Notes under the pieces: generated by a model | What the model was told of the DNA's origin: nothing | Seen by the model: only the letters and a program-made list of their open reading frames with translations | The model's database searches: none | In this document: positions 14,636 through 41,051 of the stretch, piece after piece | Layout of the letters: every line of letters begins with the position of its first letter | Position numbering within the stretch: the first letter of the stretch is position 1 | Translations under genes and position numbers: made by a program | Assembly: GCA_030688205.1 (NCBI GenBank) | Contig: JAUYIQ010000056.1 | Location: 1-41,419 of the forward strand | Origin: Candidatus Curtissbacteria bacterium | GTDB lineage: Bacteria; Patescibacteriota; Microgenomatia; Curtissbacterales; GWA2-41-24 | Reading direction: 5' to 3' | DNA: 41,419 nt

Positions 14636-15044
14636 ACTCAAGCCCCCATTTTTTGAAGCCAAGATTTTCGTAGAATTTGTGAATATCGGCGCGGTCCATG
14701 CCTGAAGTAAAAATTATTTTGTAACAGTTTTTTCCTTTTGCAAGTTCTACAATTTTTTTGGAAAGAGCAGTGCCTATTCCTTTGCCCCTTTGTTTTTCGT
14801 CTACGATCATTCCTTCCAACAAGGCATAAGATTGACCGTGAGCAGGGATAGGCAGGTAAAAAATTGTGGCGGTACCAACAACTGTGCCGTCAATTTTGGC
14901 AACAAGTACACTGCAGTTGTCGTTTGCTATTAATTTTTCCAGTATTTCTGCGGCATTTGACGCAATATTTTCGACTCTGTAAATTTGCAACTGAAGCAGC
15001 AAAATGCCTTCGATGTCGTTTTTTGTGGCGAAGGTTATTTCCAT
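14598..15044 (-). CDS. GNAT-family N-acetyltransferase
   Basis: Acetyl-CoA binding motif QRGKGIGTAL. 148 aa. A TACAAT box lies 6 nt upstream of the ATG. Confidence 0.85.
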   Translation of the reverse strand: MEITFATKNDIEGILLLQLQIYRVENIASNAAEILEKLIANDNCSVLVAKIDGTVVGTATIFYLPIPAHGQSYALLEGMIVDEKQRGKGIGTALSKKIVELAKGKNCYKIIFTSGMDRADIHKFYENLGFKKWGLEFRMDLAPQEASG

Positions 15045-15075
15045 ATAAGTATTGTACTGGAAAATGGCTTCTTTG

Positions 15076-15084
15076 TGCTACAAT
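15076..15084 (+). promoter_or_regulatory. extended -10 (TGcTACAAT) 7 nt upstream of ATG 15092 (leaderless geometry)
   Basis: TGCTACAAT at 15076-15084, then ttggtca, then ATG. A mirror-image TACAAT on the minus strand (15051-15056) serves the GNAT gene. Confidence 0.5.
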
Positions 15085-15091
15085 TTGGTCA

Positions 15092-16309
15092 ATGAAGCTA
15101 TACGAATTTGAGGGGCATAAGATTTTTTCCAAGGTGGGCATTGAAAGCCCTTTTTTTGTGGTTATCTCTAAAGTTGAAGAGCTAGAGCAGGCCAGACGGC
15201 GGCTTAAATTCCCCATTGTTTGCAAGGTTCAGGTTCTTTCCGGCAAAAGAGGGAAAAGCGGTGGGGTCAAAGTTGCTATGAATGAAAAACAGCTGAAGGA
15301 TTTTGTCGGAGAATTTTTGGGAAAAGATTTCAATGGTGAAGAAGTCCGGTTTATTGAGCTTTGCAAAAAAGTTGATATTGAGGCTGAGAACTACATTTCT
15401 ATTACATACGACACTGTTTTGAAATCTCCATTTTTGCTTTTTTGTGCTGCGGGAGGTGTTGATATTGAAGAAGTTAAAAAAACAGATCCACAAGCGATTA
15501 TTAGATACGATTTTGACGTTTTTGCTGGACCCGTAAAAAAAGAGCTTGAAAAGCTTGGGATACCCTCGGACTTTGCAATGAGGCTTTGGGATGCTTTTTC
15601 CAAATATGATTGCCGGTTGGTTGAAGTGAATCCCTTCGCTCTTTGCAGAGCTCAGGGTAAACCACCTAAGTATGTGGCAGTTGATTCAAAGATAATTCTG
15701 GATGATGCAGGAGTTTCCCGTCATAGGGACTTGAACGTTTTGCCAAAGGGTGAAGTAGGAGCAGTTCCAACAGTGCGAGAGCTACAGGCTCGTGAAATAG
15801 ATGCTGAGGATTACAGAGGTACGGCCGGATCAAAATTTATTGAGTTTGATGGAGATATCGCGGTTCTTGCGTCTGGCGGTGGAGCGTCACTTCTTGTAAT
15901 GGACTCGATGTTTGCAGCAGGTGGAAAGCCGGCGAACTATACGGAATATTCCGGGAATCCGCCGAGAGAGAAGGTTGAAAAGTTAACGAAGATTGCTTTA
16001 TCTCGTGAGGGGCTTCGTGGTTGCTTAGTTGCGGGGGCTGTTGCTAACTTTACTGATATTTTTGAAACTCTATCCGGTTTTGTTGACGGTTTAGTTCAGG
16101 TTAAACCAAAGCCTGCTTATCCTATTGTGATTAGGCGCGGAGGGCCAAGATTGAAAGAGGCATATGAGATGCTTTCGCTTTTATCCAAAAAAGAAGGTTT
16201 TGACATTCATTTGTATGGACCGGAGACGCCAATTTCTGTCGCTGCGAAAAAGATGGTGGAACTGTCGGAGAAATTTAAGAAGTCGCAAGTTAAAAGTGCT
16301 AAGTTATAA
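15092..16309 (+). CDS. ATP-citrate lyase beta / citryl-CoA synthetase large subunit-like ATP-grasp protein (SucC homolog)
   Basis: Start at MKLYEFEGHKIF; the track ORF's upstream 76 codons overlap the GNAT gene. It has ACL-type motifs SGGGASLLV, ANYTEYSGNPP, VANFTDIF and IRRGGP instead of the SucC NGAGLAM / ANFLDVGGGA motifs. Confidence 0.82.
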   Translation: MKLYEFEGHKIFSKVGIESPFFVVISKVEELEQARRRLKFPIVCKVQVLSGKRGKSGGVKVAMNEKQLKDFVGEFLGKDFNGEEVRFIELCKKVDIEAENYISITYDTVLKSPFLLFCAAGGVDIEEVKKTDPQAIIRYDFDVFAGPVKKELEKLGIPSDFAMRLWDAFSKYDCRLVEVNPFALCRAQGKPPKYVAVDSKIILDDAGVSRHRDLNVLPKGEVGAVPTVRELQAREIDAEDYRGTAGSKFIEFDGDIAVLASGGGASLLVMDSMFAAGGKPANYTEYSGNPPREKVEKLTKIALSREGLRGCLVAGAVANFTDIFETLSGFVDGLVQVKPKPAYPIVIRRGGPRLKEAYEMLSLLSKKEGFDIHLYGPETPISVAAKKMVELSEKFKKSQVKSAKL

Positions 16310-16316
16310 ATTTAAA

Positions 16317-16344
16317 ACTTATGACTTGTAACTTATAACTTCAC
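16317..16344 (+). repeat. heptamer tandem array ACTTATG-ACTTGTA-ACTTATA-ACTTCAC
   Basis: Four 7-nt units filling the spacer immediately upstream of ATG 16347. No Shine-Dalgarno. Confidence 0.7.
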
Positions 16345-16346
16345 AT

Positions 16347-17237
16347 ATGGCAATTCTAGTAAATCGCGAAACAAGAATTTTAATTCAAGGCATTACAGGC
16401 AAACAGGGGAGCAGGGCTTGTTCGGAGATACTTTCTTATGGTGGGAATGTTGTCGGTGGCGTTACACCCGGCAAAGGTGGTCAGGAAGTTAGCGGACTGC
16501 CTGTTTTTAACACCGTTGGAGAAGCTTTGACTGCCCTTGGTGCTGTAGATGTTTCGATGGTTTATGCGCCGCCACTTATTGTTTTGGAGGCGGCTTGCGA
16601 AGCAGTAAATTCTAAAGTTCCACTTGTTCATATTTTTGCGGAAAATGTTCCCATTTTGGATGTTTGCAGAATTTTAACTCTTGCATCAAAGGCGGGTGTT
16701 CGTGTTTTGGGACCAAATTCTGTTGGTGCGATTTCACCAGGCGAAGGAAAGATCGGCTCAATAGGCGGACCGGATCCGGACGCCGTTTTTTCAAGAGGTC
16801 CTGTTGGTGTTATTTCCAAATCCGGCGGGATGTGTAGCGAACTCGGAAACTTGATAACAAGCGGTGGGTTTGGCCAGTCTACAGTTGTAGGTGTAGGTGG
16901 CGATTTGCTTATTGGAATAAGCTTTTCTGACCTTCTTTTAGAGTTTGAGAAGGATAGACAAACTAAATGCGTTGTTGCGTTTGGGGAAGTAGGGGGCAGT
17001 TCCGAAGTTGAGGCGGCAAAATTGATGAAAGAAGGGAAGTTTACGAAACCCTTTATTGTTTATTTGGCGGGTCGTTTTGCCGAAAAGTTGCCGAAAGATA
17101 CGGCGCTTGGACATGCCGGTGCAATTGTCGGGCTTGAAGCTACTATGGATGAGAAAATCAAAATTTTAAAAAATGCCGGAGCTGTAGTTGCTGAGAATTT
17201 TGAGGATATCCCGGGTTTGATTAAATCCGCGATTTAA
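16347..17237 (+). CDS. succinyl-CoA synthetase alpha-like / citryl-CoA synthetase small subunit-like (CoA-binding, phosphohistidine)
   Basis: GGVTPGKGG...GLPVFNTV CoA-binding motif, SKSGGM, and the phosphohistidine loop LGHAGAIV. 296 aa. Confidence 0.9.
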   Translation: MAILVNRETRILIQGITGKQGSRACSEILSYGGNVVGGVTPGKGGQEVSGLPVFNTVGEALTALGAVDVSMVYAPPLIVLEAACEAVNSKVPLVHIFAENVPILDVCRILTLASKAGVRVLGPNSVGAISPGEGKIGSIGGPDPDAVFSRGPVGVISKSGGMCSELGNLITSGGFGQSTVVGVGGDLLIGISFSDLLLEFEKDRQTKCVVAFGEVGGSSEVEAAKLMKEGKFTKPFIVYLAGRFAEKLPKDTALGHAGAIVGLEATMDEKIKILKNAGAVVAENFEDIPGLIKSAI

Positions 17238-17252
17238 CTATATACTTAAGGC

Positions 17253-17990
17253 ATGGCTCGAGCTTATCGCACCGCAATTACCACTCACGTTGACGGAGGG
17301 CTTTACGTTTACGGACACAATTTAGTCGATCTTGCCGGAAATACTTCTTTTGCAAAAGCTATTTTTCTAATTTTAAAAGGCGAAATGCCGGATAAGTCTT
17401 CCGAGAAGATGTTCGAGGCAATTTTGACTGTTGCCATAGATCACGGTGTAGAACCAGCTTCCGTGGTGGCCGCAAGAAATATTTATTCGGGTGGAAGTCC
17501 GGTTCAGGCTGCGGTTGCGGGGGGAATTTTGGCGCTGGGTGAATTTCATGGCGGTGCAATTGAGGCTGCGATGGAGAACTTCAAAAAATACGAATCGGTG
17601 GGAGTAAAAAGGTTAGTTGAGGATTTTGCAAAAAGCGGTACGCGGGTTGCAGGATTCGGACATAGACTATACGACACCGATCCAAGAACGCAGAGACTTT
17701 TGGAAGTTGCAAAACAAAACGGATTTTTTGGTAAATATGTTAAGTTTGCACTTTTGTGCGAAGGGGAGATATCTAAGGGTGGTAAGAAATTACCATTGAA
17801 CATAGATGGTATTGTCGCTGCACTTTTACTGGAGATGGATTTTAATCCGAAAGTAGGAAAAGGTGTTTTTATTATCGCCAGAACTCCAGGACTTGTTGCT
17901 CATGTTGTGGAGGAAGCGCTTCGCGAGAAACCTGTTCGCAGGCTTTTGGAAAAAGACGTTGAGTACGATGGGCCAAGGCCACGGAAATGA
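17253..17990 (+). CDS. short citrate-synthase-fold protein, citryl-CoA lyase-like
   Basis: 245 aa. Carries the catalytic-type motifs EFHGGA and GFGHRLYDTDPR but lacks the N-terminal half of a true citrate synthase. Confidence 0.8.
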   Translation: MARAYRTAITTHVDGGLYVYGHNLVDLAGNTSFAKAIFLILKGEMPDKSSEKMFEAILTVAIDHGVEPASVVAARNIYSGGSPVQAAVAGGILALGEFHGGAIEAAMENFKKYESVGVKRLVEDFAKSGTRVAGFGHRLYDTDPRTQRLLEVAKQNGFFGKYVKFALLCEGEISKGGKKLPLNIDGIVAALLLEMDFNPKVGKGVFIIARTPGLVAHVVEEALREKPVRRLLEKDVEYDGPRPRK

Positions 17991-18505: not shown

Positions 18506-19311
18506 AATTACCTGATCTTCACAAAATTACTTCATACGAGATAACTAAGCGTCAAAAGATAGTTTTGATGGCGCTTTTTTTAACGGTTGTTTTAATTACT
18601 ACCCAGACAGTGGGGGAATCAGTAAGATATCAGACTATTGGTTTCCTGACTCTAGCTACTGTTTTACTTTCGATTTTTGCATTGTGGGGAGAATTGTCGG
18701 GAGTCAAATACTTTTTGCTTCTTTTGTTACCGGCGTATTTTGTTGCGGGTGCTTCGCTTTTTTACTTTTTACTACCGGTGAGATGGCTGACCAGGTTGCC
18801 GTTTGCAGCTTTATTTGGGGTTTCGGTGTACTTACTGATGCTTACGTCAAACATTTATAACGTTGCGTCCATTCGAACAATTGCACTACTTCGGGCAGCA
18901 AATGCTGTTGGCTTATTGTTTTCACTTGTTTCTACTTTTTTTCTTACAAACGTACTATTTTCTCTTCATTTTCCGTTTTACCTTAATGTTATTGGAATAG
19001 CTTTAATAACCGGCCCACTGTATTTGGTGGGGGTTTGGGCGAGTGAACTTGAGGATTATATTTCCCAACGGGCTTTTTGGTACGCTGTTGTATTTACTAT
19101 GGTAACTTCTCAGGTGGGGCTTGTACTTTCTTTTTGGCCAATCGTACCCATAAACGGAGCTTTGGCAATTGCGACTGTTATGTATGCACTGTTGGGGCTT
19201 TCTCAGCTTTATTTGGAAGATAAACTCAAAAGCAGAGTGTTATGGGAACATATAGGTGTGGCACTTTTGGTTTTTGTGATTATCACAATTTCAACAAGGT
19301 GGGGCGGATAG
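18502..19311 (+). CDS. hypothetical polytopic membrane protein
   Basis: 269 aa with about 8 predicted TM helices. GTG start overlapping the ruvC stop (GTGA). Confidence 0.7.
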   Translation: MKLPDLHKITSYEITKRQKIVLMALFLTVVLITTQTVGESVRYQTIGFLTLATVLLSIFALWGELSGVKYFLLLLLPAYFVAGASLFYFLLPVRWLTRLPFAALFGVSVYLLMLTSNIYNVASIRTIALLRAANAVGLLFSLVSTFFLTNVLFSLHFPFYLNVIGIALITGPLYLVGVWASELEDYISQRAFWYAVVFTMVTSQVGLVLSFWPIVPINGALAIATVMYALLGLSQLYLEDKLKSRVLWEHIGVALLVFVIITISTRWGG

Positions 19312-19348
19312 AGGAGACCTATAGTTAATATAGGGGGAGAGGGTTAAG

Positions 19349-19383
19349 TAGTGATTAGTGCGTAGTGATTAGTGATTAGTTAG
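19349..19383 (+). repeat. heptamer array TAGTGAT-TAGTGCG-TAGTGAT-TAGTGAT-TAGTTAG
   Basis: Five 7-nt units. Followed by a TTAGCTTCA(A/G)A x2 direct repeat at 19380-19401. Confidence 0.8.
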
Positions 19384-19420
19384 CTTCAAATTAGCTTCAG
19401 AAATATCTGCAAAAAAGAGT

Positions 19421-19455
19421 AGGACAGAGGAGACAGGGTAGAGGAACAGGTGATA
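19421..19455 (+). repeat. degenerate purine-rich heptamer array AGGACAG-AGGAGAC-AGGGTAG-AGGAACA-GGTGATA
   Basis: AGG recurs with a period of 7. Confidence 0.5.
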
Positions 19456-19561
19456 TAGTCTGATACTGTTATAGCAATGTGAAAAAAATGGGGCAGTAGC
19501 GTGAAAAGAAATTATGGGTCATAAGTCCGAAGATTTTCCGAAGGCCTGTTTTTGAGGTTTG

Positions 19562-19705
19562 ATGAGTCAAGAGACAGACAAAATATTGACAGACATATTA
19601 TCGGGTAGAGTTGAGGTTCTTTCTCTTCTTACAATTGCTCAAAGAAAAACCGAATGTTTTGGCGGTTTCGTGAAAAGAGTGCTAAACGGAAAAGCGACGT
19701 ATTGA
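19562..19705 (+). CDS. candidate 47-aa ORF inside the noncoding island
   Basis: ATG preceded by TTGAGGTTTG (GAGG at 4-nt spacing). Translation: MSQETDKILTDILSGRVEVLSLLTIAQRKTECFGGFVKRVLNGKATY. No homology recognised. Confidence 0.25.
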   Translation: MSQETDKILTDILSGRVEVLSLLTIAQRKTECFGGFVKRVLNGKATY

Positions 19706-19747
19706 GATGTTTTGGGAGAAGAGGTCTATTAGGGTAGAAACAGTGAT

Positions 19748-19775
19748 AAATTTTCAATTTCCAATTTCCAATTTC
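19748..19775 (+). repeat. heptamer array AAATTTT-(CAATTTC)x3
   Basis: Three perfect CAATTTC units at 19755-19775. Confidence 0.8.
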
Positions 19776-19892
19776 CACTGAATTTGTGACACACAATTCT
19801 CCGGGGAGGGTCATATCTCCTTTTATCTAATGCGTCGCACAATGATACTTTTGCGACGTAAGCCGAGGCTAGGTAGGGAGTGTAGGCTAATT

Positions 19893-19927
19893 AATTCAAA
19901 ATTCAAAGTTCTAATTTCAAAGTTGTA
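19893..19927 (+). repeat. heptamer array AATTCAA-AATTCAA-AGTTCTA-ATTTCAA-AGTTGTA
   Basis: Five 7-nt units, two of them perfect. Confidence 0.7.
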
Positions 19928-20232
19928 TTTTCCCCAATTTACCCCTTTTGTCGTTGTTATTCTTCGCTTATTTGTCGGTCCATATTGATGCACTTATCCC
20001 CTGTTAATACCAATAAGATTTTTTAAGCCTCTGTTTGAACTCAATTTCACACTTCGCTTTTTGGAAATAAGCTCAGTAAAAACACTTTGGATGACTGTTT
20101 GGCCTTAGTGAAACGCAGGATAAACGACTGTTTATCCTATTGGGGCAGCAAAAAGGCGTTGTAGGGGCTCTGGCGGGCTTGTAGGTTTAAAAATGTTTAA
20201 GGTAAAATATTATTTCTGCCAAATATTGCTGT

Positions 20233-21732
20233 ATGGATATACTAGACTTAGAAGATCAGCTTTCCAAATTTATTTATGAACTTGAAACCGAAGACCGTTT
20301 GGTTCGAGTTGGTTTAAAAGATACTGCCGAAAGTTCTAAGATTTACAAAAAATACAAAAGTATATTCACCGAAAAAAATCTTTCTGAGATTCAGGCACTG
20401 ATTTCAAAAACAAAAAACCCCGGGACACGTGATATATATAAGCGAATTTATTTCACGATAGCAGGAAGTTTTATCGGGCTTGCAACCGCTTCATCAGAAG
20501 ACCAGATAACCACTTATTTTTCGGGTGCAAAAGTTAAGGTTGCGGGCGAAGAAATTCCATACTATGAGCTGATGCCTAGAATTTCAAAAGACACGGTATT
20601 TGAAAAACGAGAGAGACTGGACGACGCAGGAACTTCTGTGGTTTCAAAAGTTAATTCTAAACGATTAAAACTTGTGCAAGATGAATTGAAACTAATCAAG
20701 AAGCTTGGATTTTCAGACTATGTTGATTATTTTTCCAAAGGGAAAAAGATGGATTATGCGAAGTTTTACAAAGTTGTGAATAAGATTACGAAGGAAACGG
20801 ATAAGATCTGGAATAAGGTTATGTTTCAGGTGTCTCAGGAGGTTTTCAAGAGGCCTTTTGTCAATATTCGCTCATGCCACCTGGCATATTTAAGGTCTAT
20901 CTCGATGTATGACAATTATTATCCAAAAGAAAAAGTTGTGCCAACATTTTTAAAATGGACGCAAGATATTGGTTTAGCCGATTTGATTCCTTCAATTCAG
21001 ATTGATGACCGCGACAGGCCAAAGAAAAATCCAAGGGCCGTTTGCTATTGGCCAAAGCCACCGGAGGAGATTCATTTGGTTATAAAACCCATCGGTGGCG
21101 AACAGGATTTTGAGGCTTTATTTCATGAAGGTGGTCATGCTCTGCATGGGGCGTCTGTTTCTGTAAAACTCCCTTACACCCTTCGCGCACTCGCCCACTC
21201 TAATGCACTCACCGAAACATATGCGTTTTTATTGGAAGACATGGTTTTTGATCCCGATTTTCTGACCTCTTACCTGAACGTAAGCTCTTTTACCGGCAAT
21301 AAAATCAAATGGCAGGCATATTTTGTAAACCTTATGATGCTCCGGCGTTATTTGGGAAAATTCTCATATGAATATGAAATGTTTTCAAAAGGTGCAATTT
21401 CTAAAGGTCCGCTTCTCTACTCTAAGAATTTACAAAGAACTACCGGATTTATAACTAAGCGCGAAAATTGGCTTGCCGATATGGATGGTGGATTTTATAG
21501 TGCGGATTATCTACGTGCCTGGATATCTGCCGCTCAGATTCACGATTATATCAAGAGAAAATTCGGTAAGAAATGGTTTGTTAACGGGAAGACCGGAGAG
21601 TTTTTGCGAAAACTCTACTCACGAGGGGTTACGGATGAGATTGAGGATGTGGTGACAAGATTAGGATACAAGCCTTGGGATACGAGTTATTTGATTAGCG
21701 GCTATCGAGACGTTCTTGGTAAGGGTGAGTAA
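20233..21732 (+). CDS. M3-family (oligoendopeptidase F-like) zinc metallopeptidase
   Basis: HExxH motif in the context FHEGGHALHG. 499 aa. Confidence 0.68.
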   Translation: MDILDLEDQLSKFIYELETEDRLVRVGLKDTAESSKIYKKYKSIFTEKNLSEIQALISKTKNPGTRDIYKRIYFTIAGSFIGLATASSEDQITTYFSGAKVKVAGEEIPYYELMPRISKDTVFEKRERLDDAGTSVVSKVNSKRLKLVQDELKLIKKLGFSDYVDYFSKGKKMDYAKFYKVVNKITKETDKIWNKVMFQVSQEVFKRPFVNIRSCHLAYLRSISMYDNYYPKEKVVPTFLKWTQDIGLADLIPSIQIDDRDRPKKNPRAVCYWPKPPEEIHLVIKPIGGEQDFEALFHEGGHALHGASVSVKLPYTLRALAHSNALTETYAFLLEDMVFDPDFLTSYLNVSSFTGNKIKWQAYFVNLMMLRRYLGKFSYEYEMFSKGAISKGPLLYSKNLQRTTGFITKRENWLADMDGGFYSADYLRAWISAAQIHDYIKRKFGKKWFVNGKTGEFLRKLYSRGVTDEIEDVVTRLGYKPWDTSYLISGYRDVLGKGE

Positions 21733-23570: not shown

Positions 23571-23629
23571 TTAATTGTTAATATTTAAAGAAGTATGTCG
23601 CACAATTTTGGGGTTTGCTTCCCTGTTGT

Positions 23630-23659
23630 TTGATTTTGAAGTTGGGAGCGTCGTAGAAT
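23630..23659 (+). promoter_or_regulatory. candidate promoter TTGATT-18 nt-TAGAAT for the recombinase gene
   Basis: -35 at 23630-23635 and -10 at 23654-23659. This would place the heptamer array in the ~45-nt 5' UTR. Confidence 0.4.
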
Positions 23660-23664
23660 AGAAT

Positions 23665-23699
23665 TAGTGATTAGTGCCTGGTGGTTAGTGATTAGTCAC
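23665..23699 (+). repeat. heptamer array TAGTGAT-TAGTGCC-TGGTGGT-TAGTGAT-TAGTCAC
   Basis: Five 7-nt units ending 10 nt before ATG 23710. Same unit as at 19349 and closely related to the one at 37231. Confidence 0.8.
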
Positions 23700-25528: not shown

Positions 25529-28500
25529 CTAGTTTCTATGGGTGACGTATGAGCTCCATGGTAGGGCTTTTAGGTCCTCGAGTTTTTTCTCGGAGATGCT
25601 TCTTGCGAAAAGTTCTGCGGTTTGCATGTTTGTCAGAAGCGGAATGCCAAAATCCACTGTTGTACGTCTTATTACATAGTCGTCGTCAAATTCAGTTTTA
25701 AAGTACGGGTCGACGACGTTTATGACAAGGTCGATTTTCTTTTGAAGAAGATAGTCCAGAACATTTGGTTTTTTCTTTTCGTGGATTTTATGAAGTTTTT
25801 CAGACATAATTTTATGTGAATTTAGAAAAGCTGATGTGCCTTCTGTTGCATATATTTTTAGACCCATTTGATCAAGAATCTTGGCACTTGTGAGGAACTT
25901 CAATTTATTCTCTTCGCCGGCAAGGGAAATAAAAACTGATTTTTTGGGCATTTTTACCCCGGTTGCAATTATGGATTTAAGAAATGCTTCAGAAATATCA
26001 TTTCCAAAACATGCGACTTCACCGGTTGATGACATCTCGACTCTCAGAATCGGGTCTGCGCCTTTCACCCTTGAAAAAGAGAACTGCGGAGCTTTGACAC
26101 CAACGTAAGAAATTCCATTAGTAGCATTGGCAACGTCGCTCGGGGTCCTGTCATCAGTTTCCATCCCGCCAGTGCTCGTCGACTTAACGCTTGATGTGTT
26201 AGGTTGATTCCATTTGGTTGACTGCGCGCTGTCGGGAGCCCTCCCACTGATGCCACCCCTCGCGAGAATTGCTTCAGTTGCGATTTTTACGAAGTTTACT
26301 CCGGTTACTTTTGAAACAAATGGCAGGCTTCTTGATGCACGAAGATTGCACTCAATTACCATTACCTTGTTGTCTTTTGCAAGGAATTGAATGTTGAAAG
26401 GGCCCGTTATTTTAAGAGAGCTTGTAATTTTTTCGGTGATTGCCAGTATTTGCTTTTCTGTTTCGAGATAAATCTTCTGTGCCGGTAGAACCATTGTTGC
26501 GTCCCCTGAATGAACCCCGGCATTTTCTACGTGTTCTGAGATTGCATAGGTTAGCACACTTCCTCTGTTTGCGATGGCGTCTATTTCGATTTCTTTAGTA
26601 TTTTCAAAATACTTTGAGATAACAACCGGATATTTTTCTGAAATGTTCGATGCAAGTTTGAGATAGTTTTTGAGGTCTTCCTCGTTAAAGGCGACATTCA
26701 TTGCTGCTCCTGAAAGAACATATGACGGTCTAACCAGAACGGGAAAACTAACTTTTTGGGCAAAGCTTATTGCTTCTTTTATGTTTTTAAGCATGGCCCA
26801 CGGAGGTTGATCTATTTCCAAAGTATCGCAAAGTTTAGAAAACTTATTGCGGTCTTCTGCCTGGTCGATAGAGCCTGGGCTTGTCCCTAAAATTCTGGCA
26901 CCGGCAGCTGCAAGATCCATCACCAAATTGTTAGGAGTTTGGCCTCCCATTGAAACTATAATGCCTTGCGGGTTTTCCTTTTTGTATATTTCCATAACCG
27001 CTTCTTTAGAAAGTTCTTCGAAGTAAAGTTTTTTAGCCATGTCAAAATCTGTTGAAACAGTTTCCGGATTGCAATTGATGATAATTGGAGAAAACCCAAG
27101 ACTTTGTGCCGTTTGGGCGCAGGTTACGCTACACCAATCAAATTCTACGGAGGAGCCAATTCGGTAAGGTCCGGAGCCAAGAACAATAATAGATTTTGGA
27201 TTTTGGATTTTGGATTTTGGATCTATGTCGTCACAGTCCCCGTTATATGTGAGGTATAGATAATTGGTTTCTGCAGGATATTCTGCAGCAAGGGTGTCGA
27301 TTTGTTTTGCCGCGGGGTGAATGTTAAATTTATGTCTTTGTTCTCTTATGTTTCCTTCAGTGGTGTTTTTTAACTGTGCAAGTCGCATATCGGCGAAGCC
27401 GTATTGTTTTGCTTTTTGCAAAAGTTCTCTGTCCAGTTTGGATTTTTGGATTTCTTTTTCTAAATTAGCGATGTTTTTAATTTTTTCCAGAAAGAAAGGA
27501 TCTATGCCGGTTTTTTTGTATATATCTGGAATTTGTATGCCCGTCTTAATGGCTCTTGCTACGGCGAACAGTCTTGTTGGTGTAGGAGTTTCCCAGTCAT
27601 CTTCCTGATTCTTTTCGTCTAAGAGTCCCGTAAGACCAAGATCGAGCATGCGTACTGCTTTTTGAAGCGCTTCTTCAAACTTTCTTCCAATTGCCATAAC
27701 CTCACCTACTGATTGCATATAGGAGCCTATTCGATAATCGCTTTTTTGGAATTTGCCAAGATCCCATCTGGGGAATTTAACGACTATGTAATCGAGGGCC
27801 GGTTCGAAAGCGGCTGTAGTCTTTTTGGTGACTGAGTTTTTAAGTTCGGTTAAGCCATATCCGAGCCCGAGTTTTGCTGCAATGTATGCTAGTGGATATC
27901 CGGTGGCTTTTGATGCCAAAGCTGAGCTTCTGGATAAGCGGGCGTTGACTTCAATGATACGGTAATCAGGAGAATAGTTGCCAGTATCCAGGGACCAGTC
28001 ATGACTTTTTTTCTTTCCGGTCTCTGGTCTCTGGTCTCTATTTACTGGCTGTGGATTCAAAGCGAATTGGATATTGCACTCGCCTACTATTCCCAAATGC
28101 CTTATTACTTTTATGGCAATTTCCCGAAGCGTGTGATATTCGTTGTTGTTTAGTGTTTGTGAGGGGGCAACTACGATAGATTCACCGGTGTGGATTCCCA
28201 TCGGATCGACGTTTTCCATGTTGCAGACCGTTATGCAGTTATCGTATTTGTCCCGGACTACCTCGTACTCTATTTCTTTCCAGCCGGCTAGGTATTCTTC
28301 GATTAAAACCTGTGGAGATTTGGTAAGCGAACGGGTTATCGCTTCTTCCAAATCATTCATATTTGTAAAGACCCCTGAATCCTGTCCGCCGAGAGAGAAA
28401 GCGCTTCTTACAATAACCGGGAAGCCTATTTTTTTAATTGCTTCTTTGGCTTTTTGAATTGAATGTACGGCAGCGCTTTTTGGGATTGCCAGATCAATAC

Positions 28501-28891
28501 TTTGCAGCATTTTGGCAAAGAGCGCGCGGTCTTCTGTTATTTCGATTGCAGAGATCCCGGTTCCCAGAACTTTTACGTTATATTTTTTCAAAACTCCTGA
28601 TTTTGCAAGAGCAAGGCCGCAGTTAAGAGCTGTTTGACCGCCAAAAGAAAGCAGGATTCCATCTGGTTTTTCGCGCTTTATTACCTCTTCTACAAAGTGT
28701 GGTTCGACGGGAAGAAAGTAAACCTGGTCGGCAAAATCTTTTGAAGTTTGGATGGTTGCTATGTTTGGATTGATTAGAATTACTTCGGCCCCCTCTTCTT
28801 TCAAAGCTTTAATAGCTTGCGAGCCGGAATAATCGAATTCTCCGGCTTGGCCGATTTTCAAGGCACCTGATCCTAGTAATAAAACTTTCAT
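25529..28891 (-). CDS. carB: carbamoyl-phosphate synthase large subunit, with lineage-specific insertions
   Basis: 1120 aa. Two ATP-grasp halves (IEVNARLSRSSALASKATGYPLA; ECNLRASRSLPFVSKVTG). ATGA overlap with carA. Confidence 0.96.
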   Translation of the reverse strand: MKVLLLGSGALKIGQAGEFDYSGSQAIKALKEEGAEVILINPNIATIQTSKDFADQVYFLPVEPHFVEEVIKREKPDGILLSFGGQTALNCGLALAKSGVLKKYNVKVLGTGISAIEITEDRALFAKMLQSIDLAIPKSAAVHSIQKAKEAIKKIGFPVIVRSAFSLGGQDSGVFTNMNDLEEAITRSLTKSPQVLIEEYLAGWKEIEYEVVRDKYDNCITVCNMENVDPMGIHTGESIVVAPSQTLNNNEYHTLREIAIKVIRHLGIVGECNIQFALNPQPVNRDQRPETGKKKSHDWSLDTGNYSPDYRIIEVNARLSRSSALASKATGYPLAYIAAKLGLGYGLTELKNSVTKKTTAAFEPALDYIVVKFPRWDLGKFQKSDYRIGSYMQSVGEVMAIGRKFEEALQKAVRMLDLGLTGLLDEKNQEDDWETPTPTRLFAVARAIKTGIQIPDIYKKTGIDPFFLEKIKNIANLEKEIQKSKLDRELLQKAKQYGFADMRLAQLKNTTEGNIREQRHKFNIHPAAKQIDTLAAEYPAETNYLYLTYNGDCDDIDPKSKIQNPKSIIVLGSGPYRIGSSVEFDWCSVTCAQTAQSLGFSPIIINCNPETVSTDFDMAKKLYFEELSKEAVMEIYKKENPQGIIVSMGGQTPNNLVMDLAAAGARILGTSPGSIDQAEDRNKFSKLCDTLEIDQPPWAMLKNIKEAISFAQKVSFPVLVRPSYVLSGAAMNVAFNEEDLKNYLKLASNISEKYPVVISKYFENTKEIEIDAIANRGSVLTYAISEHVENAGVHSGDATMVLPAQKIYLETEKQILAITEKITSSLKITGPFNIQFLAKDNKVMVIECNLRASRSLPFVSKVTGVNFVKIATEAILARGGISGRAPDSAQSTKWNQPNTSSVKSTSTGGMETDDRTPSDVANATNGISYVGVKAPQFSFSRVKGADPILRVEMSSTGEVACFGNDISEAFLKSIIATGVKMPKKSVFISLAGEENKLKFLTSAKILDQMGLKIYATEGTSAFLNSHKIMSEKLHKIHEKKKPNVLDYLLQKKIDLVINVVDPYFKTEFDDDYVIRRTTVDFGIPLLTNMQTAELFARSISEKKLEDLKALPWSSYVTHRN
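27192..27219. repeat. perfect (GATTTTG)x4 heptamer array inside the carB coding sequence
   Basis: Read on the coding strand as (CAAAATC)x4, encoding DPKSKIQNPKS in the inter-domain linker. Confidence 0.9.
28019..28039. repeat. perfect (GGTCTCT)x3 heptamer array inside the carB coding sequence
   Basis: Coding strand (AGAGACC)x3 encodes RDQRPET, within an ~30-aa insert relative to the canonical F.LNP...IEVN.R block. Confidence 0.9.

Positions 28892-33993: not shown

Positions 33994-33994
<1 letters not shown>
33377..33994 (-). CDS. hypothetical protein (gyrB-gyrA intervening gene 1)
   Basis: 205-aa ORF. Its ATG overlaps the gyrB TAA by 1 nt (TAATG). No recognisable motif. Confidence 0.65.
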
Positions 33995-37265
<3,271 letters not shown>

Positions 37266-37289
37266 GTCAGGGAATTAGCTCAGAATCTA

Positions 37290-37317
37290 GTTTTACAGAA
37301 GCGGGCCATTCTGTCAA
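37290..37317 (-). promoter_or_regulatory. candidate gyrB promoter TTGACA-16 nt-TAAAAC
   Basis: Perfect -35 at 37312-37317 and -10 at 37290-37295 (minus strand), between the holB-like stop and gyrB. Confidence 0.5.
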
Positions 37318-37347
37318 TTTTACCAGATTTAGTGAGGCTATTGCAAG

Positions 37348-39880: not shown

Positions 39881-39883
39881 GAA

Positions 39884-39911
39884 AATTTTCAATTTGCAAT
39901 TCTCACTTTTC
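39884..39911 (+). repeat. heptamer array AATTTTC-AATTTGC-AATTCTC-ACTTTTC
   Basis: Four 7-nt units starting 4 nt after the pilB stop. Confidence 0.65.
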
Positions 39912-39927
39912 ATTGAATTTTCAATGA
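39910..39927. promoter_or_regulatory. perfect palindrome TCATTGAA-tt-TTCAATGA in the pilB-pilT spacer
   Basis: 8-bp arms with a 2-nt centre. Could be an operator or a small hairpin. Confidence 0.35.
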
Positions 39928-39963
39928 GTTAATTTTCAAATTGAGACATTGTTAATTGATTGA

Positions 39964-39991
39964 AAATTGTAAATTAGAAATTGTAAATTAA
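39964..39991 (+). repeat. heptamer/14-mer array AAATTGT-AAATTAG-AAATTGT-AAATTAA
   Basis: Two 14-nt units (four heptamers) ending 4 nt before the pilT ATG. Confidence 0.7.
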
Positions 39992-39995
39992 ATCA

Positions 39996-41051
39996 ATGTC
40001 GATACAAGAGTTCTTAGAGATTGTTGTTAAAAAAGAGGCTTCGGATTTACACTTGGTTGTGGGAACTCCTGCAATGGTAAGAGTGGACGGGCAGTTAATG
40101 CCGGTTTCTGCCGCAGCGCTTACTCCTGAAGAAACAGAGACTTTGGTTTTTGAACTTCTTTCGCCTGAACAAAAAGAATTACTTTTGGTAAACAAAGAGC
40201 TGGATTTTTCATTCGCCTTGGGAGATGTAGCGAGATTCAGGGTAAATGCTTATTACCAAAAGGGATATTTGTCCGCAGCTTTGAGGTTAATCCCCTCTTA
40301 CATAAAGACTATTGAGGAATTGAATCTGCCGAGAATTTGCCATAAATTTGCTAAACTGCGACAAGGTTTTATTTTGGTTACCGGTCCGACTGGTCACGGC
40401 AAATCTACTTCGATTGCTTCCATGATAAACGAGATTAACCAAACCAAAGCGCTTCATATTGTAACTATCGAAGATCCAATTGAATACGTGTATCCTAAGG
40501 CTAAGTCATTGGTTTCGCAGAGGGAAATGCATTTAGACACGCATTCGTGGGACGTTGCACTCAGGTCGGTTTTGAGGGAGGACCCCGATGTTGTTCTGGT
40601 CGGTGAAATGAGAGACTTTGAAACTATAGCGTCTGCAATTACTGTTGCTGAAACCGGGCATTTGGTTTTTGCAACGTTGCATACAAACTCTGCTGCGCAG
40701 TCAATTGACAGAATCATCGACGTTTTTCCGGAAAATCAGCAGGCGCAGGTGAGGATGCAATTGGCGTCAACTATAGCAGGTATAGTTTCGATAAGACTGG
40801 TAAGCGCAATAGGTGGAGGCAGACTTCCGGCAGTTGAGATACTTCTGGCAAGCTCTGCGGTACAAACGTCGGTGCGCGAAGGTAAAACTCATATGATTGA
40901 TAACATAATACAAACATCCGGTGCTGAAGGCATGATTCTTATGGATGCATCTCTCGCGTATTTAGTGCGCGCCGGACGAATTTCACTTGATGTTGCCCAA
41001 ACTTACTGTGTGAGGCCTGAAGAGCTTGATCGGATGATCGGAGGGGAATGA
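39996..41051 (+). CDS. pilT: type IV pilus retraction (twitching motility) ATPase PilT
   Basis: 351 aa. ASDLHL motif, Walker A GPTGHGKST, and GHLVFATLHTNSA. Confidence 0.93.
   Translation: MSIQEFLEIVVKKEASDLHLVVGTPAMVRVDGQLMPVSAAALTPEETETLVFELLSPEQKELLLVNKELDFSFALGDVARFRVNAYYQKGYLSAALRLIPSYIKTIEELNLPRICHKFAKLRQGFILVTGPTGHGKSTSIASMINEINQTKALHIVTIEDPIEYVYPKAKSLVSQREMHLDTHSWDVALRSVLREDPDVVLVGEMRDFETIASAITVAETGHLVFATLHTNSAAQSIDRIIDVFPENQQAQVRMQLASTIAGIVSIRLVSAIGGGRLPAVEILLASSAVQTSVREGKTHMIDNIIQTSGAEGMILMDASLAYLVRAGRISLDVAQTYCVRPEELDRMIGGE

Follow-up and report, generated by a model that had tools for sequence, protein, structure and literature searches.

Heptanucleotide tandem arrays of diverse unit in leaders, spacers and protein linkers of a Candidatus Curtissbacteria genome and its relatives

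The window analysed here, 41,419 nt of a Candidatus Curtissbacteria bacterium (GenBank assembly GCA_030688205.1, contig JAUYIQ010000056.1, positions 1 to 41,419), carries tandem arrays of seven-nucleotide units, which are the subject of this report. Pfam assigns its neighbouring genes to gyrB with an intein, gyrA, carA, carB, an integrase-family recombinase of the XerC/D type, a DUF5656 protein, type IV pilus ATPases and an ATP-citrate-lyase-like cluster. The closest match of the GyrB N-terminus, at 92% identity, is in a Candidatus Curtissbacteria metagenome-assembled genome, and the next ~20 matches belong to Curtissbacteria or unnamed Patescibacteria. A Shine-Dalgarno (SD) sequence of the GGAG/GAGG type precedes a minority of the window genes only, the majority being SD-less. 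We know of no experimental work on gene expression in the Patescibacteria, or candidate phyla radiation (CPR). Three of the arrays have a TAGTGA-type unit:

19349-19383, + strand: TAGTGAT array of five units, TAGTGAT TAGTGCG TAGTGAT TAGTGAT TAGTTAG (start at 19347 in Tandem Repeats Finder, TRF)
23665-23699, + strand: recombinase-leader array, TAGTGAT TAGTGCC TGGTGGT TAGTGAT TAGTCAC (TRF start 23663)
37231-37265, - strand: gyrB-leader array, (AGTGAAT)x4 at 37231-37258, then a degenerate AGTCATA

These three arrays had been picked out in a first-pass annotation of the window; their coordinates and parsing into units proved exact, and each is also reported by TRF. A two-unit probe, TAGTGATTAGTGAT, matched the window 14 times with at most 3 mismatches, against 3.5 +/- 1.8 matches in dinucleotide shuffles (maximum 8), and 11 of the 14 matches fall inside the three arrays. 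The recombinase array is identical in an independent Logan contig, L001 (fetched loci are designated by such numbers throughout), and the 19349 array is unchanged in L162, an NCBI assembly (GCA_034372645.1) 99.94% identical to the window. Because they are identical in independent assemblies, the arrays are not assembly artefacts. Chance or artefact as an explanation of the whole, opposed as well by the shuffle controls and by the occurrence of such arrays in 100 further contigs of various projects, has a negligible probability.

The three arrays had been described as lying in 5' leaders of genes without SD. The location stands for the recombinase and gyrB; the third array lies 37 nt past the stop codon of the DUF5656 gene and ~850 nt before the next open reading frame (ORF), at the start of a 920-nt ORF-free region. 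Both gyrB and the recombinase are indeed SD-less, which is not distinctive, since most window genes are. The TAGTGA unit is in sense at the recombinase and antisense at gyrB where, as had been recognised, the array is opposite in orientation to the gene and reads in mRNA sense as an ACTATTC repeat. The 19349 and 23665 arrays have their first 13 nt in common, the TAGTGC variant of the second unit among them. A mobile element as the means of dispersal was considered and rejected, the two arrays being without flanking similarity, and so was an insulator with a stop codon in all three frames, which is true of TAGTGAT; the units ACTATTC, AATTTTC and GTCAAAT contain no stop triplet.

In the window as a whole, TRF reports some 10 arrays of period 7, in which about 8 units are represented. 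A strict period-neutral scan detected 5 arrays of period 7 (0.03 in shuffles); periods 6 and 8-15 yielded none. Since period 7 is in excess while the other periods are empty, the signal is period 7 and not the TAGTGA word. At least six further period-7 arrays found by TRF, at 16300, 19749, 19893, 27192, 28019 and 39959, have non-TAGTGA units; the last of them lies within a longer heptamer-built spacer:

16300-16341, + strand: degenerate TAACTTA array (TRF), unchanged in L162, L163 and L164
19749-19777, + strand: AATTTCC x4.1 array in the ORF-free region
19893-19932, + strand: AATTCAA array, or 14-nt TTCAAAGTTCTAAT array, in the ORF-free region (TRF)
27192-27222, - strand: GATTTTG array, (CAAAATC)x4.4 in gene sense, in frame within carB
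28019-28039, - strand: GGTCTCT array, (AGAGACC)x3 in gene sense, in frame within carB
39881-39995, + strand: spacer from the pilB-like gene to the next T2SSE ATPase gene, heptamer-built almost throughout, its last units ending 6 nt before ATG 39996

A dispersed family defined by TAGTGA(T/A), as initially proposed, is too narrow a description: the units are very diverse and mostly AT-rich, of AAATTnn types. Among heptamer arrays, those of the TAGTGA type form a small group that is mostly genome-local, and TAGTGA(T/A) is the locally commonest unit of this genome.

The TAACTTA array at 16300 fills the entire 37-nt spacer between the stop codon of the ATP-grasp/citrate-binding gene at 16309 and the ATG of the CoA-ligase alpha gene at 16347. 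The cluster to which these genes belong (14864-17990, + strand) encodes an ATP-grasp_2 and ATP-citrate-lyase citrate-binding protein, a CoA-binding/CoA-ligase protein and a short Citrate_synt-family protein. It resembles an ATP-citrate lyase or citryl-CoA synthetase/lyase, and is unusual in a metabolically limited CPR genome. The ORF-free region (19312-20232) is a 920-nt, G-rich stretch with three heptamer arrays and no ORF >61 aa, 99.94% conserved in L162. It may represent an RNA gene that has escaped recognition, or a gene in decay. Rfam 15 returned only a tRNA for the whole window at gathering scores, and nothing significant for 19250-20300 at E <= 1; a known RNA family was therefore rejected as an explanation of the arrays or of the ORF-free region.

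The excess of period 7 extends to related genomes. Arrays were counted with TRF at >=3 copies and a score >= 30, on the basis of 41 kb of this genome and ~1.2 Mb of related contigs, not of a complete genome; the recombinase loci form a separate, independent sample, 80 metagenome contigs retrieved by means of the recombinase. The counts were:

Curtissbacteria gyrB loci, 353 kb: 59 period-7 arrays; 10, 9 and 6 arrays at periods 6, 8 and 9
Other CPR loci, 314 kb: 19 period-7 arrays; other periods lower
Non-CPR loci (Chlamydiae, Verrucomicrobia etc.), 663 kb: 9 period-7 arrays; other periods lower
Recombinase loci of closest relatives, 204 kb: 51 period-7 arrays; other periods at most 5 each
More distant recombinase loci, 702 kb: 79 period-7 arrays; other periods at most 13 each

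An excess over other periods was the test that the first-pass annotation had itself named, and it is found both in the Curtissbacteria loci (59 against at most 10) and in the independent set (51 against at most 5). The density of period-7 arrays is 113-249 per Mb in related loci (1.26 Mb), as against 14 per Mb in non-CPR loci. The arrays are short, with 3-13 units. Unit sequences grade into one another, AT-rich heptamers of the AAATTnn type predominating, and the GC content of the units averages 24%, compared with 41% for the genome. Many arrays have a 14-nt super-period made of two alternating unit variants (for example 19347-19380, 19902-19932, 39964-39990 and several other loci), which suggests growth by two-unit steps.

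The arrays are concentrated outside genes and, there, near gene starts. Of the 198 arrays in the 1.26 Mb, 113 fall outside long ORFs, in sequence that makes up 12.7% of the total, a ~9-fold higher non-coding density. A start codon follows within 12 nt of the array end in 42 of 107 intergenic arrays, whereas placing them at random within those spacers yields 19.7 +/- 3.0, with 42 reached in 0 of 2000 trials; the positional bias to gene starts that had been suggested for the family is thereby borne out. With the three orthologous sites discussed below and duplicate loci removed, 24 of 75 arrays are still start-proximal against 13.8 +/- 2.4 (0/5000 trials). Proximity to stop codons is marginal (21 versus 15.8 expected). 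Sequence identity at lags 7 and 14 peaks at gene positions -45 to -3 in these lineages, the two peaks being about equal (0.320 at lag 7, 0.316 at lag 14), and the peaks are absent in non-CPR loci. Genes were called as longest ORFs by a first-ATG rule; the starts of gyrB, the recombinase and the pilus ATPase gene are confirmed by orthologue alignment.

Orthologous leaders were compared at these three genes. Upstream of gyrB, a conserved promoter and inverted repeat are followed by a variable segment that holds the array:

37266-37346, - strand: predicted gyrB promoter and 5' leader, conserved across Curtissbacteria
37341-37346, - strand: predicted -35 element TTGCAA
37317-37325, - strand: predicted extended -10 element TGGTAAAAT
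37312-37317, - strand: TTGACA
37295-37314, - strand: inverted repeat ACAGAA-N8-TTCTGT with variable loop

In mRNA sense the array is (ACTATTC)x4.4, is G-free and ends 6 nt before ATG 37224. Of 19 Curtissbacteria species, about 10 have an array in this leader, with changing units: ACTATTC in the window and L002, ACTATGC in L005, ACTTTTC in L011, AACTCTA in L024, GTCAAAT in L003 and TGTCAAA in L028. The leaders of L004, L006 and L017 contain degenerate heptamers, and those of the more distant Curtissbacteria L008-L010, L012, L013, L015 and L016 contain no array. A 38-nt block, TGACTATTC(x4)ACTTA, is identical between the window and L002, copy number included, while the leader beside the array has diverged and the two gyrB genes are 80% identical in nucleotides and 51% identical at third-codon positions.

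Downstream of the TTGCA-N18-TGnTAAAAT promoter, the same leader contains a conserved element, TTGACAGAATGG...TTCTGTAACACT (37295-37325, - strand; L002-L028), which forms the inverted repeat listed above. The element is either a hairpin that regulates the gyrase gene or a second promoter, TTGACA-17-TAAAAC. The product of the gene itself (33994-37224, - strand) is 1076 aa long and has an intein (Pfam Intein_splicing, residues 449-873) ahead of the Toprim domain. The gyrB of the close relative L002 appears intein-free, because gyrA begins there ~2.9 kb past the gyrB start.

At the recombinase, the array of ~5 units (TAGTGAT/ATTAGTG) makes up nearly the whole stretch from the promoter -10 to ATG 23710. 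Its position between a candidate promoter and the start codon, noted earlier, agrees with a consensus scan and with conservation of the promoter block among orthologues:

23630-23664, + strand: predicted recombinase promoter, TTGATT-18-TAGAAT (23630-23659), overlapping TTGAAG-17-TAGAAT (23636-23664)

The promoter block GCGTCGTAGAAT is conserved in the orthologues L084, L086, L088, L089 and L096. In L084, L088, L089 and L096 only 6 nt separate the end of the -10 box from the ATG, a spacing by which these genes look leaderless. In the window and in L085, L086 and L087, 37-85 nt of heptamers separate the conserved -10 from the ATG, and further recombinase-leader arrays are found in L090, L091, L092, L101 and L105; the unit in L085 is CTGATAA (x4). 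The 6-nt spacer of L084 and L089 is ATTAGT, which matches the window unit ATTAGTG and would fit expansion or contraction in place. A motif, CGTCGCA(C/A/T)AAT or CGTCGTAGAAT, recurs in 1-3 copies upstream of the recombinase in almost all of the 49 orthologous loci (L082-L130). Its copies in the window are at 23597-23606 and 23650-23659; one copy contains the -10 box, and TTGACA often follows. The motif may be an operator or promoter module specific to the recombinase.

The third such site is the spacer before the T2SSE-family pilus ATPase gene, which is heptamer-built in ten species. In the window it begins with AATTTTC-type units and continues with ATTGAAA/ATTGTAA units in inverse orientation (TRF 39959-39989). 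The orthologous spacers of L002, L004, L007, L009, L012, L014, L017, L018 and L028 are made of different units, among them TTGAAAA, ACTTTCC, TAGTTAG (8.6 copies), TTTGAAA, GTTTTGC and AATTTCT. Judged from the aligned loci, an array persists across species, with a changing unit, in all three leaders, those of gyrB, the recombinase and the pilus ATPase gene.

This turnover bears on the suggestion that the arrays are sequence-specific operators or RNA-binding sites, in which case TAGTGA(T/A) would mark the regulon of one protein or RNA, for instance a HutP-like binder of UAG-N4-UAG. HutP sites have a UAG-N4 periodicity, as do TAGTGAT arrays. The TAGTGA core is common to three of about nine window arrays, and the likeness of the 19349 and 23665 arrays over their first 13 nt would also fit a regulon. 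Against it, sister species have unrelated units at orthologous sites, the gyrB unit is antisense to the mRNA (ACUAUUC, no UAG), one array adjoins no gene start, and the TAGTGA type is minor among 227 arrays. The exact 12-mer TAGTGATTAGTG was found in no fetched locus other than same-genome copies. With unit turnover at orthologous sites and no strand bias, a sequence-specific binding site, one of the roles first envisaged, is unlikely, and we rate a TAGTGA(T/A) regulon as improbable. The HutP-like site in particular was rejected, as most arrays, and the gyrB array in mRNA sense, are without UAG.

Arrays are not confined to non-coding sequence. In carB (25529-28891, - strand), (CAAAATC)x4.4 encodes DPKSKIQNPKS, in the linker between the two synthetase halves, and (AGAGACC)x3 encodes RDQRPET, part of a lineage-specific, length-variable insert between 'ALNP' and 'DYRIIEVNARL'; both are unchanged in L166. 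Both CarB sites are hypervariable across Curtissbacteria, with low-complexity inserts of widely varying length, several of which are heptamer arrays in the DNA, such as AAATTGG encoding NWKLEIGN in L003 and L011. AAATTGG is also the canonical unit of the 19749 array of the window. In carA of L002 (16018-16054), (ACAGTTC)x5.3 encodes TVHSSQFTVHSS between the conserved N- and C-terminal parts, presumably in an inter-domain linker. The occurrence of in-frame arrays at hypervariable linker sites indicates that the process acts anywhere and that selection filters the outcome.

Strand and structure gave little signal. In mRNA sense, start-proximal arrays have no G/C asymmetry (A 0.37, U 0.43, C 0.11, G 0.09), and array orientation is unbiased with respect to local GC skew (46 versus 52). 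A strand-specific function and an origin tied to the replication strand were both rejected, there being no G/C bias by gene sense or by GC skew. Array leaders fold slightly less well than other leaders (-6.1 versus -7.6 kcal/mol); because their z-scores equal those of controls, this difference in minimum free energy (MFE) reflects composition, namely lower GC. The gyrB leader is nearly unstructured, its MFE being -1.4 kcal/mol for 96 nt (z = +1.7), a stability equalled or exceeded by 197 of 200 shuffles. Leader structure, another role first envisaged, was rejected: folds are inconsistent, with z = -1.2 at the recombinase, +1.7 at gyrB and -2.9 at 19330-19400.

Nor was copy-number-dependent tuning of expression supported. 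Seven arrays show no copy-number change in L001, L162-L164 and L166, which are 99.9-100% identical to the window, with only 2-4 genomes sampled, and the downstream genes are housekeeping genes. An all-versus-all BLAST of the loci found no moderately diverged pair sharing an array, and protein look-ups with the holB-like and pilB-like proteins, made for further assemblies with the gyrB array, retrieved no record. A different picture comes from L165, a Logan contig (SRR26726065) in which the gene at 39996 is 99.86% identical and the upstream 66 nt are a different array (CCACTAG x3, GTACTAG x2 ...). The contig starts only 66 nt upstream of this T2SSE ATPase gene and its spacer is shorter than that of the window; L165 represents either a real strain-level array replacement or a chimeric contig.

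If the arrays were contingency loci, fast copy-number change would tune or switch expression, as at hmw1A/hmw2A of Haemophilus influenzae, whose 7-nt unit also lies between promoter and ATG (PMC8262952). Phase variation of this kind would accommodate the wholly different spacer array of L165 next to a nearly identical gene, if that contig, beginning where it does, is not chimeric. It is very improbable in view of the invariance of the seven arrays, the shortness of the arrays (3-6 units), the constancy of gyrB copy number across species and the housekeeping nature of the downstream genes (gyrB, the xerC/D-like recombinase, the CoA ligase).

With moderate confidence, we favour the following reading. 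Heptanucleotide microsatellites would arise in place, through slippage in a 7-nt register, in Curtissbacteria and related CPR, and would survive in the least-constrained sequence, above all between the promoter or transcription start and the start codon of SD-less genes. They would also survive in short intergenic spacers, and in permissive protein linkers or loops if the total length keeps frame. Arrays retained in leaders, if transcribed, would form an AU-rich, weakly structured, SD-free 5' untranslated region (UTR), with purifying selection acting at least on the gyrB array. Leaders of this kind support SD-independent initiation, which is linked to ribosomal protein S1 and to leaderless-like initiation. 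At least some arrays appear to be under selection as leaders or spacers. Indirect signs bearing on slippage are the ATTAGT spacer of L084 and L089, with its match to the window unit, and the 14-nt super-periods.

A purely neutral reading is a strong rival, and we give it a real though lesser chance of being correct. The arrays would then be functionless products of slippage, located wherever insertion is tolerated and persistent because slippage hot spots renew themselves. The extreme diversity and turnover of units, the lack of strand bias, the lack of a structure signal beyond composition, the arrays in protein linkers and in the ORF-free region, and the general heptamer excess of prokaryotes, which has been ascribed to polymerase slippage, are all in keeping with such debris. 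Less easily accommodated are the 38-nt gyrB block, identical with its copy number at 51% synonymous-site identity next to a diverged leader, the start-proximal enrichment above random placement in the same spacers, and the presence of a gyrB-leader array in about half of the species.

Several further points tell against a leader role under selection. Transcription starts are placed by consensus promoters only. The identity of the gyrB array concerns one species pair, and concerted evolution leaves it with about 7 effectively independent sites. Neither the 19349 array nor the ORF-free region fits a leader role. Array leaders are no less structured than their composition predicts, and they have no G/C strand bias, though function at the RNA level might produce one. 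The crude longest-ORF rule can put a called start just past an array that contains stop codons. Finally, the start-proximal enrichment could be passive, promoters and terminators excluding arrays so that only the ATG-side stretch is left.

A bolder possibility, which we consider rather unlikely, is that in SD-poor CPR the arrays are a selected, lineage-wide 5'-leader device, kept over long evolutionary spans before gyrB, the pilus ATPase gene and the recombinase while the unit drifts. Arrays would then grow between -10 and ATG, turning leaderless genes into leadered ones, and would serve as a landing pad for the ribosome or S1, or as a site for a periodic nucleic-acid-binding protein that reads spacing and composition and not the sequence itself.

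Tandem heptamers are known from other prokaryotes. Mrazek et al. 2007 (PNAS 104:8472), as presented in PMC4679880 and PMC4692102, found heptamers to be the commonest class of long simple sequence repeats (SSRs) in most prokaryotes and proposed polymerase-contact slippage in a 7-nt register. As far as those accounts of the survey go, the arrays described here resemble its long SSRs in the dominance of period 7, the mainly intergenic location, the diversity of units and a length beyond chance. They differ in their proximity to start codons and in the in-frame linker arrays, which are additional here, and the survey predates CPR genomes. The densities are not directly comparable, ours having been obtained with a looser threshold (TRF score >= 30) on genomes of roughly 1 Mb.

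The likeness to the short tandemly repeated repetitive (STRR) heptamers of heterocystous cyanobacteria (Mazel et al. 1990, J Bacteriol 172:2755), pointed out in the first-pass annotation, is correct in that both are tandem heptamers at many non-coding sites with several unit families per genome. Heptamers of Nostoc PCC 7120 (bioRxiv 10.1101/2022.06.06.494920) likewise lie near start codons and promoters, many within 30-100 nt, at genes with weak or absent SD. The present arrays differ from STRR in being short, in having AT-rich rather than G-rich units and in occurring in another phylum, the host not being a heterocystous cyanobacterium. STRR1 (CCCCAGT), STRR2 (TTGGTCA) and STRR3 (CAACAGT) were absent from the unit list of the first 80 loci and the window; over the full 227-array set, the comparison was limited to the commonest units.

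A parallel in position is offered by the TAACTGA direct repeats of marine Beggiatoaceae, some Cyanobacteria and Bacteroidetes (MacGregor 2015, PMC4679880), for which translational roles through S1, Csp or leaderless-like initiation were proposed. Like the present arrays, these repeats, in 2-6 copies, end a few nucleotides upstream of start codons, over the expected ribosome-binding site of SD-poor leaders; there are few canonical ribosome-binding sites, essential genes are among those downstream, and some repeats lie inside ORFs. The TAACTGA system has one dominant unit, with related heptamers rarely repeated, and a forward orientation bias, in contrast to the dozens of units, the unit turnover and the lack of bias found here. 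The exact unit TAACTGA occurs in none of the 227 arrays, and 9 differ from it at one position at most, the majority with other sequences; the only such array in the window is TAACTTA at 16300.

The GGGAATC and GGGGA(T/C)T repeats of Xanthomonas and Nostoc (Rehm et al. 2015, PMC4692102) share with the present arrays an extensive variation in length and sequence. Their units are G-rich and can form G-quadruplexes, which the units described here, at 24% GC, cannot. The hmw1A/hmw2A repeats (PMC8262952) modulate adhesin expression by rapid copy-number change, unlike the present arrays, which do not vary among near-identical genomes and precede housekeeping genes. With regard to surface or host-interaction genes, the TAGTGA arrays lie before gyrB, before the recombinase and after the DUF5656 gene, and another array precedes the CoA ligase; one spacer array does precede a pilus ATPase gene.

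A literature search combining heptamer or SSR with CPR, Patescibacteria or Microgenomates found no paper in the library searched that links the two, the top-ranked papers being without heptamer terms. Period-7 repeats, known in cyanobacteria and sulfur bacteria, have apparently not yet been described in the Curtissbacteria group. The repeat class and its association with start codons are already known. New are the persistence of arrays at orthologous sites with unit turnover, growth between -10 and ATG, one array kept across near-saturated divergence, and the in-frame linker arrays. A functionally unexplained class of repeats on the ribosome-binding region, seen in cyanobacteria, Beggiatoaceae and Bacteroidetes, also pervades a CPR lineage, and the loci assembled here form a comparative data set for deciding between functional leaders and the footprint of a 7-nt slippage bias. 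On the practical side, such arrays may break short-read assemblies (L165 starts inside such a spacer), can mislead the calling of gene starts, and give rise to inserts with a 7-residue period in enzymes, CarA and CarB among them.

As a separate observation on the window, GC skew is positive over nearly its whole length (1-41419; 0.02-0.27 per 2 kb), independently of gene orientation, a single 2-kb bin at 30-32 kb being slightly negative (-0.03). The pattern is reminiscent of a disparity in strand composition reported for a Microgenomates genome (PMC7143001).

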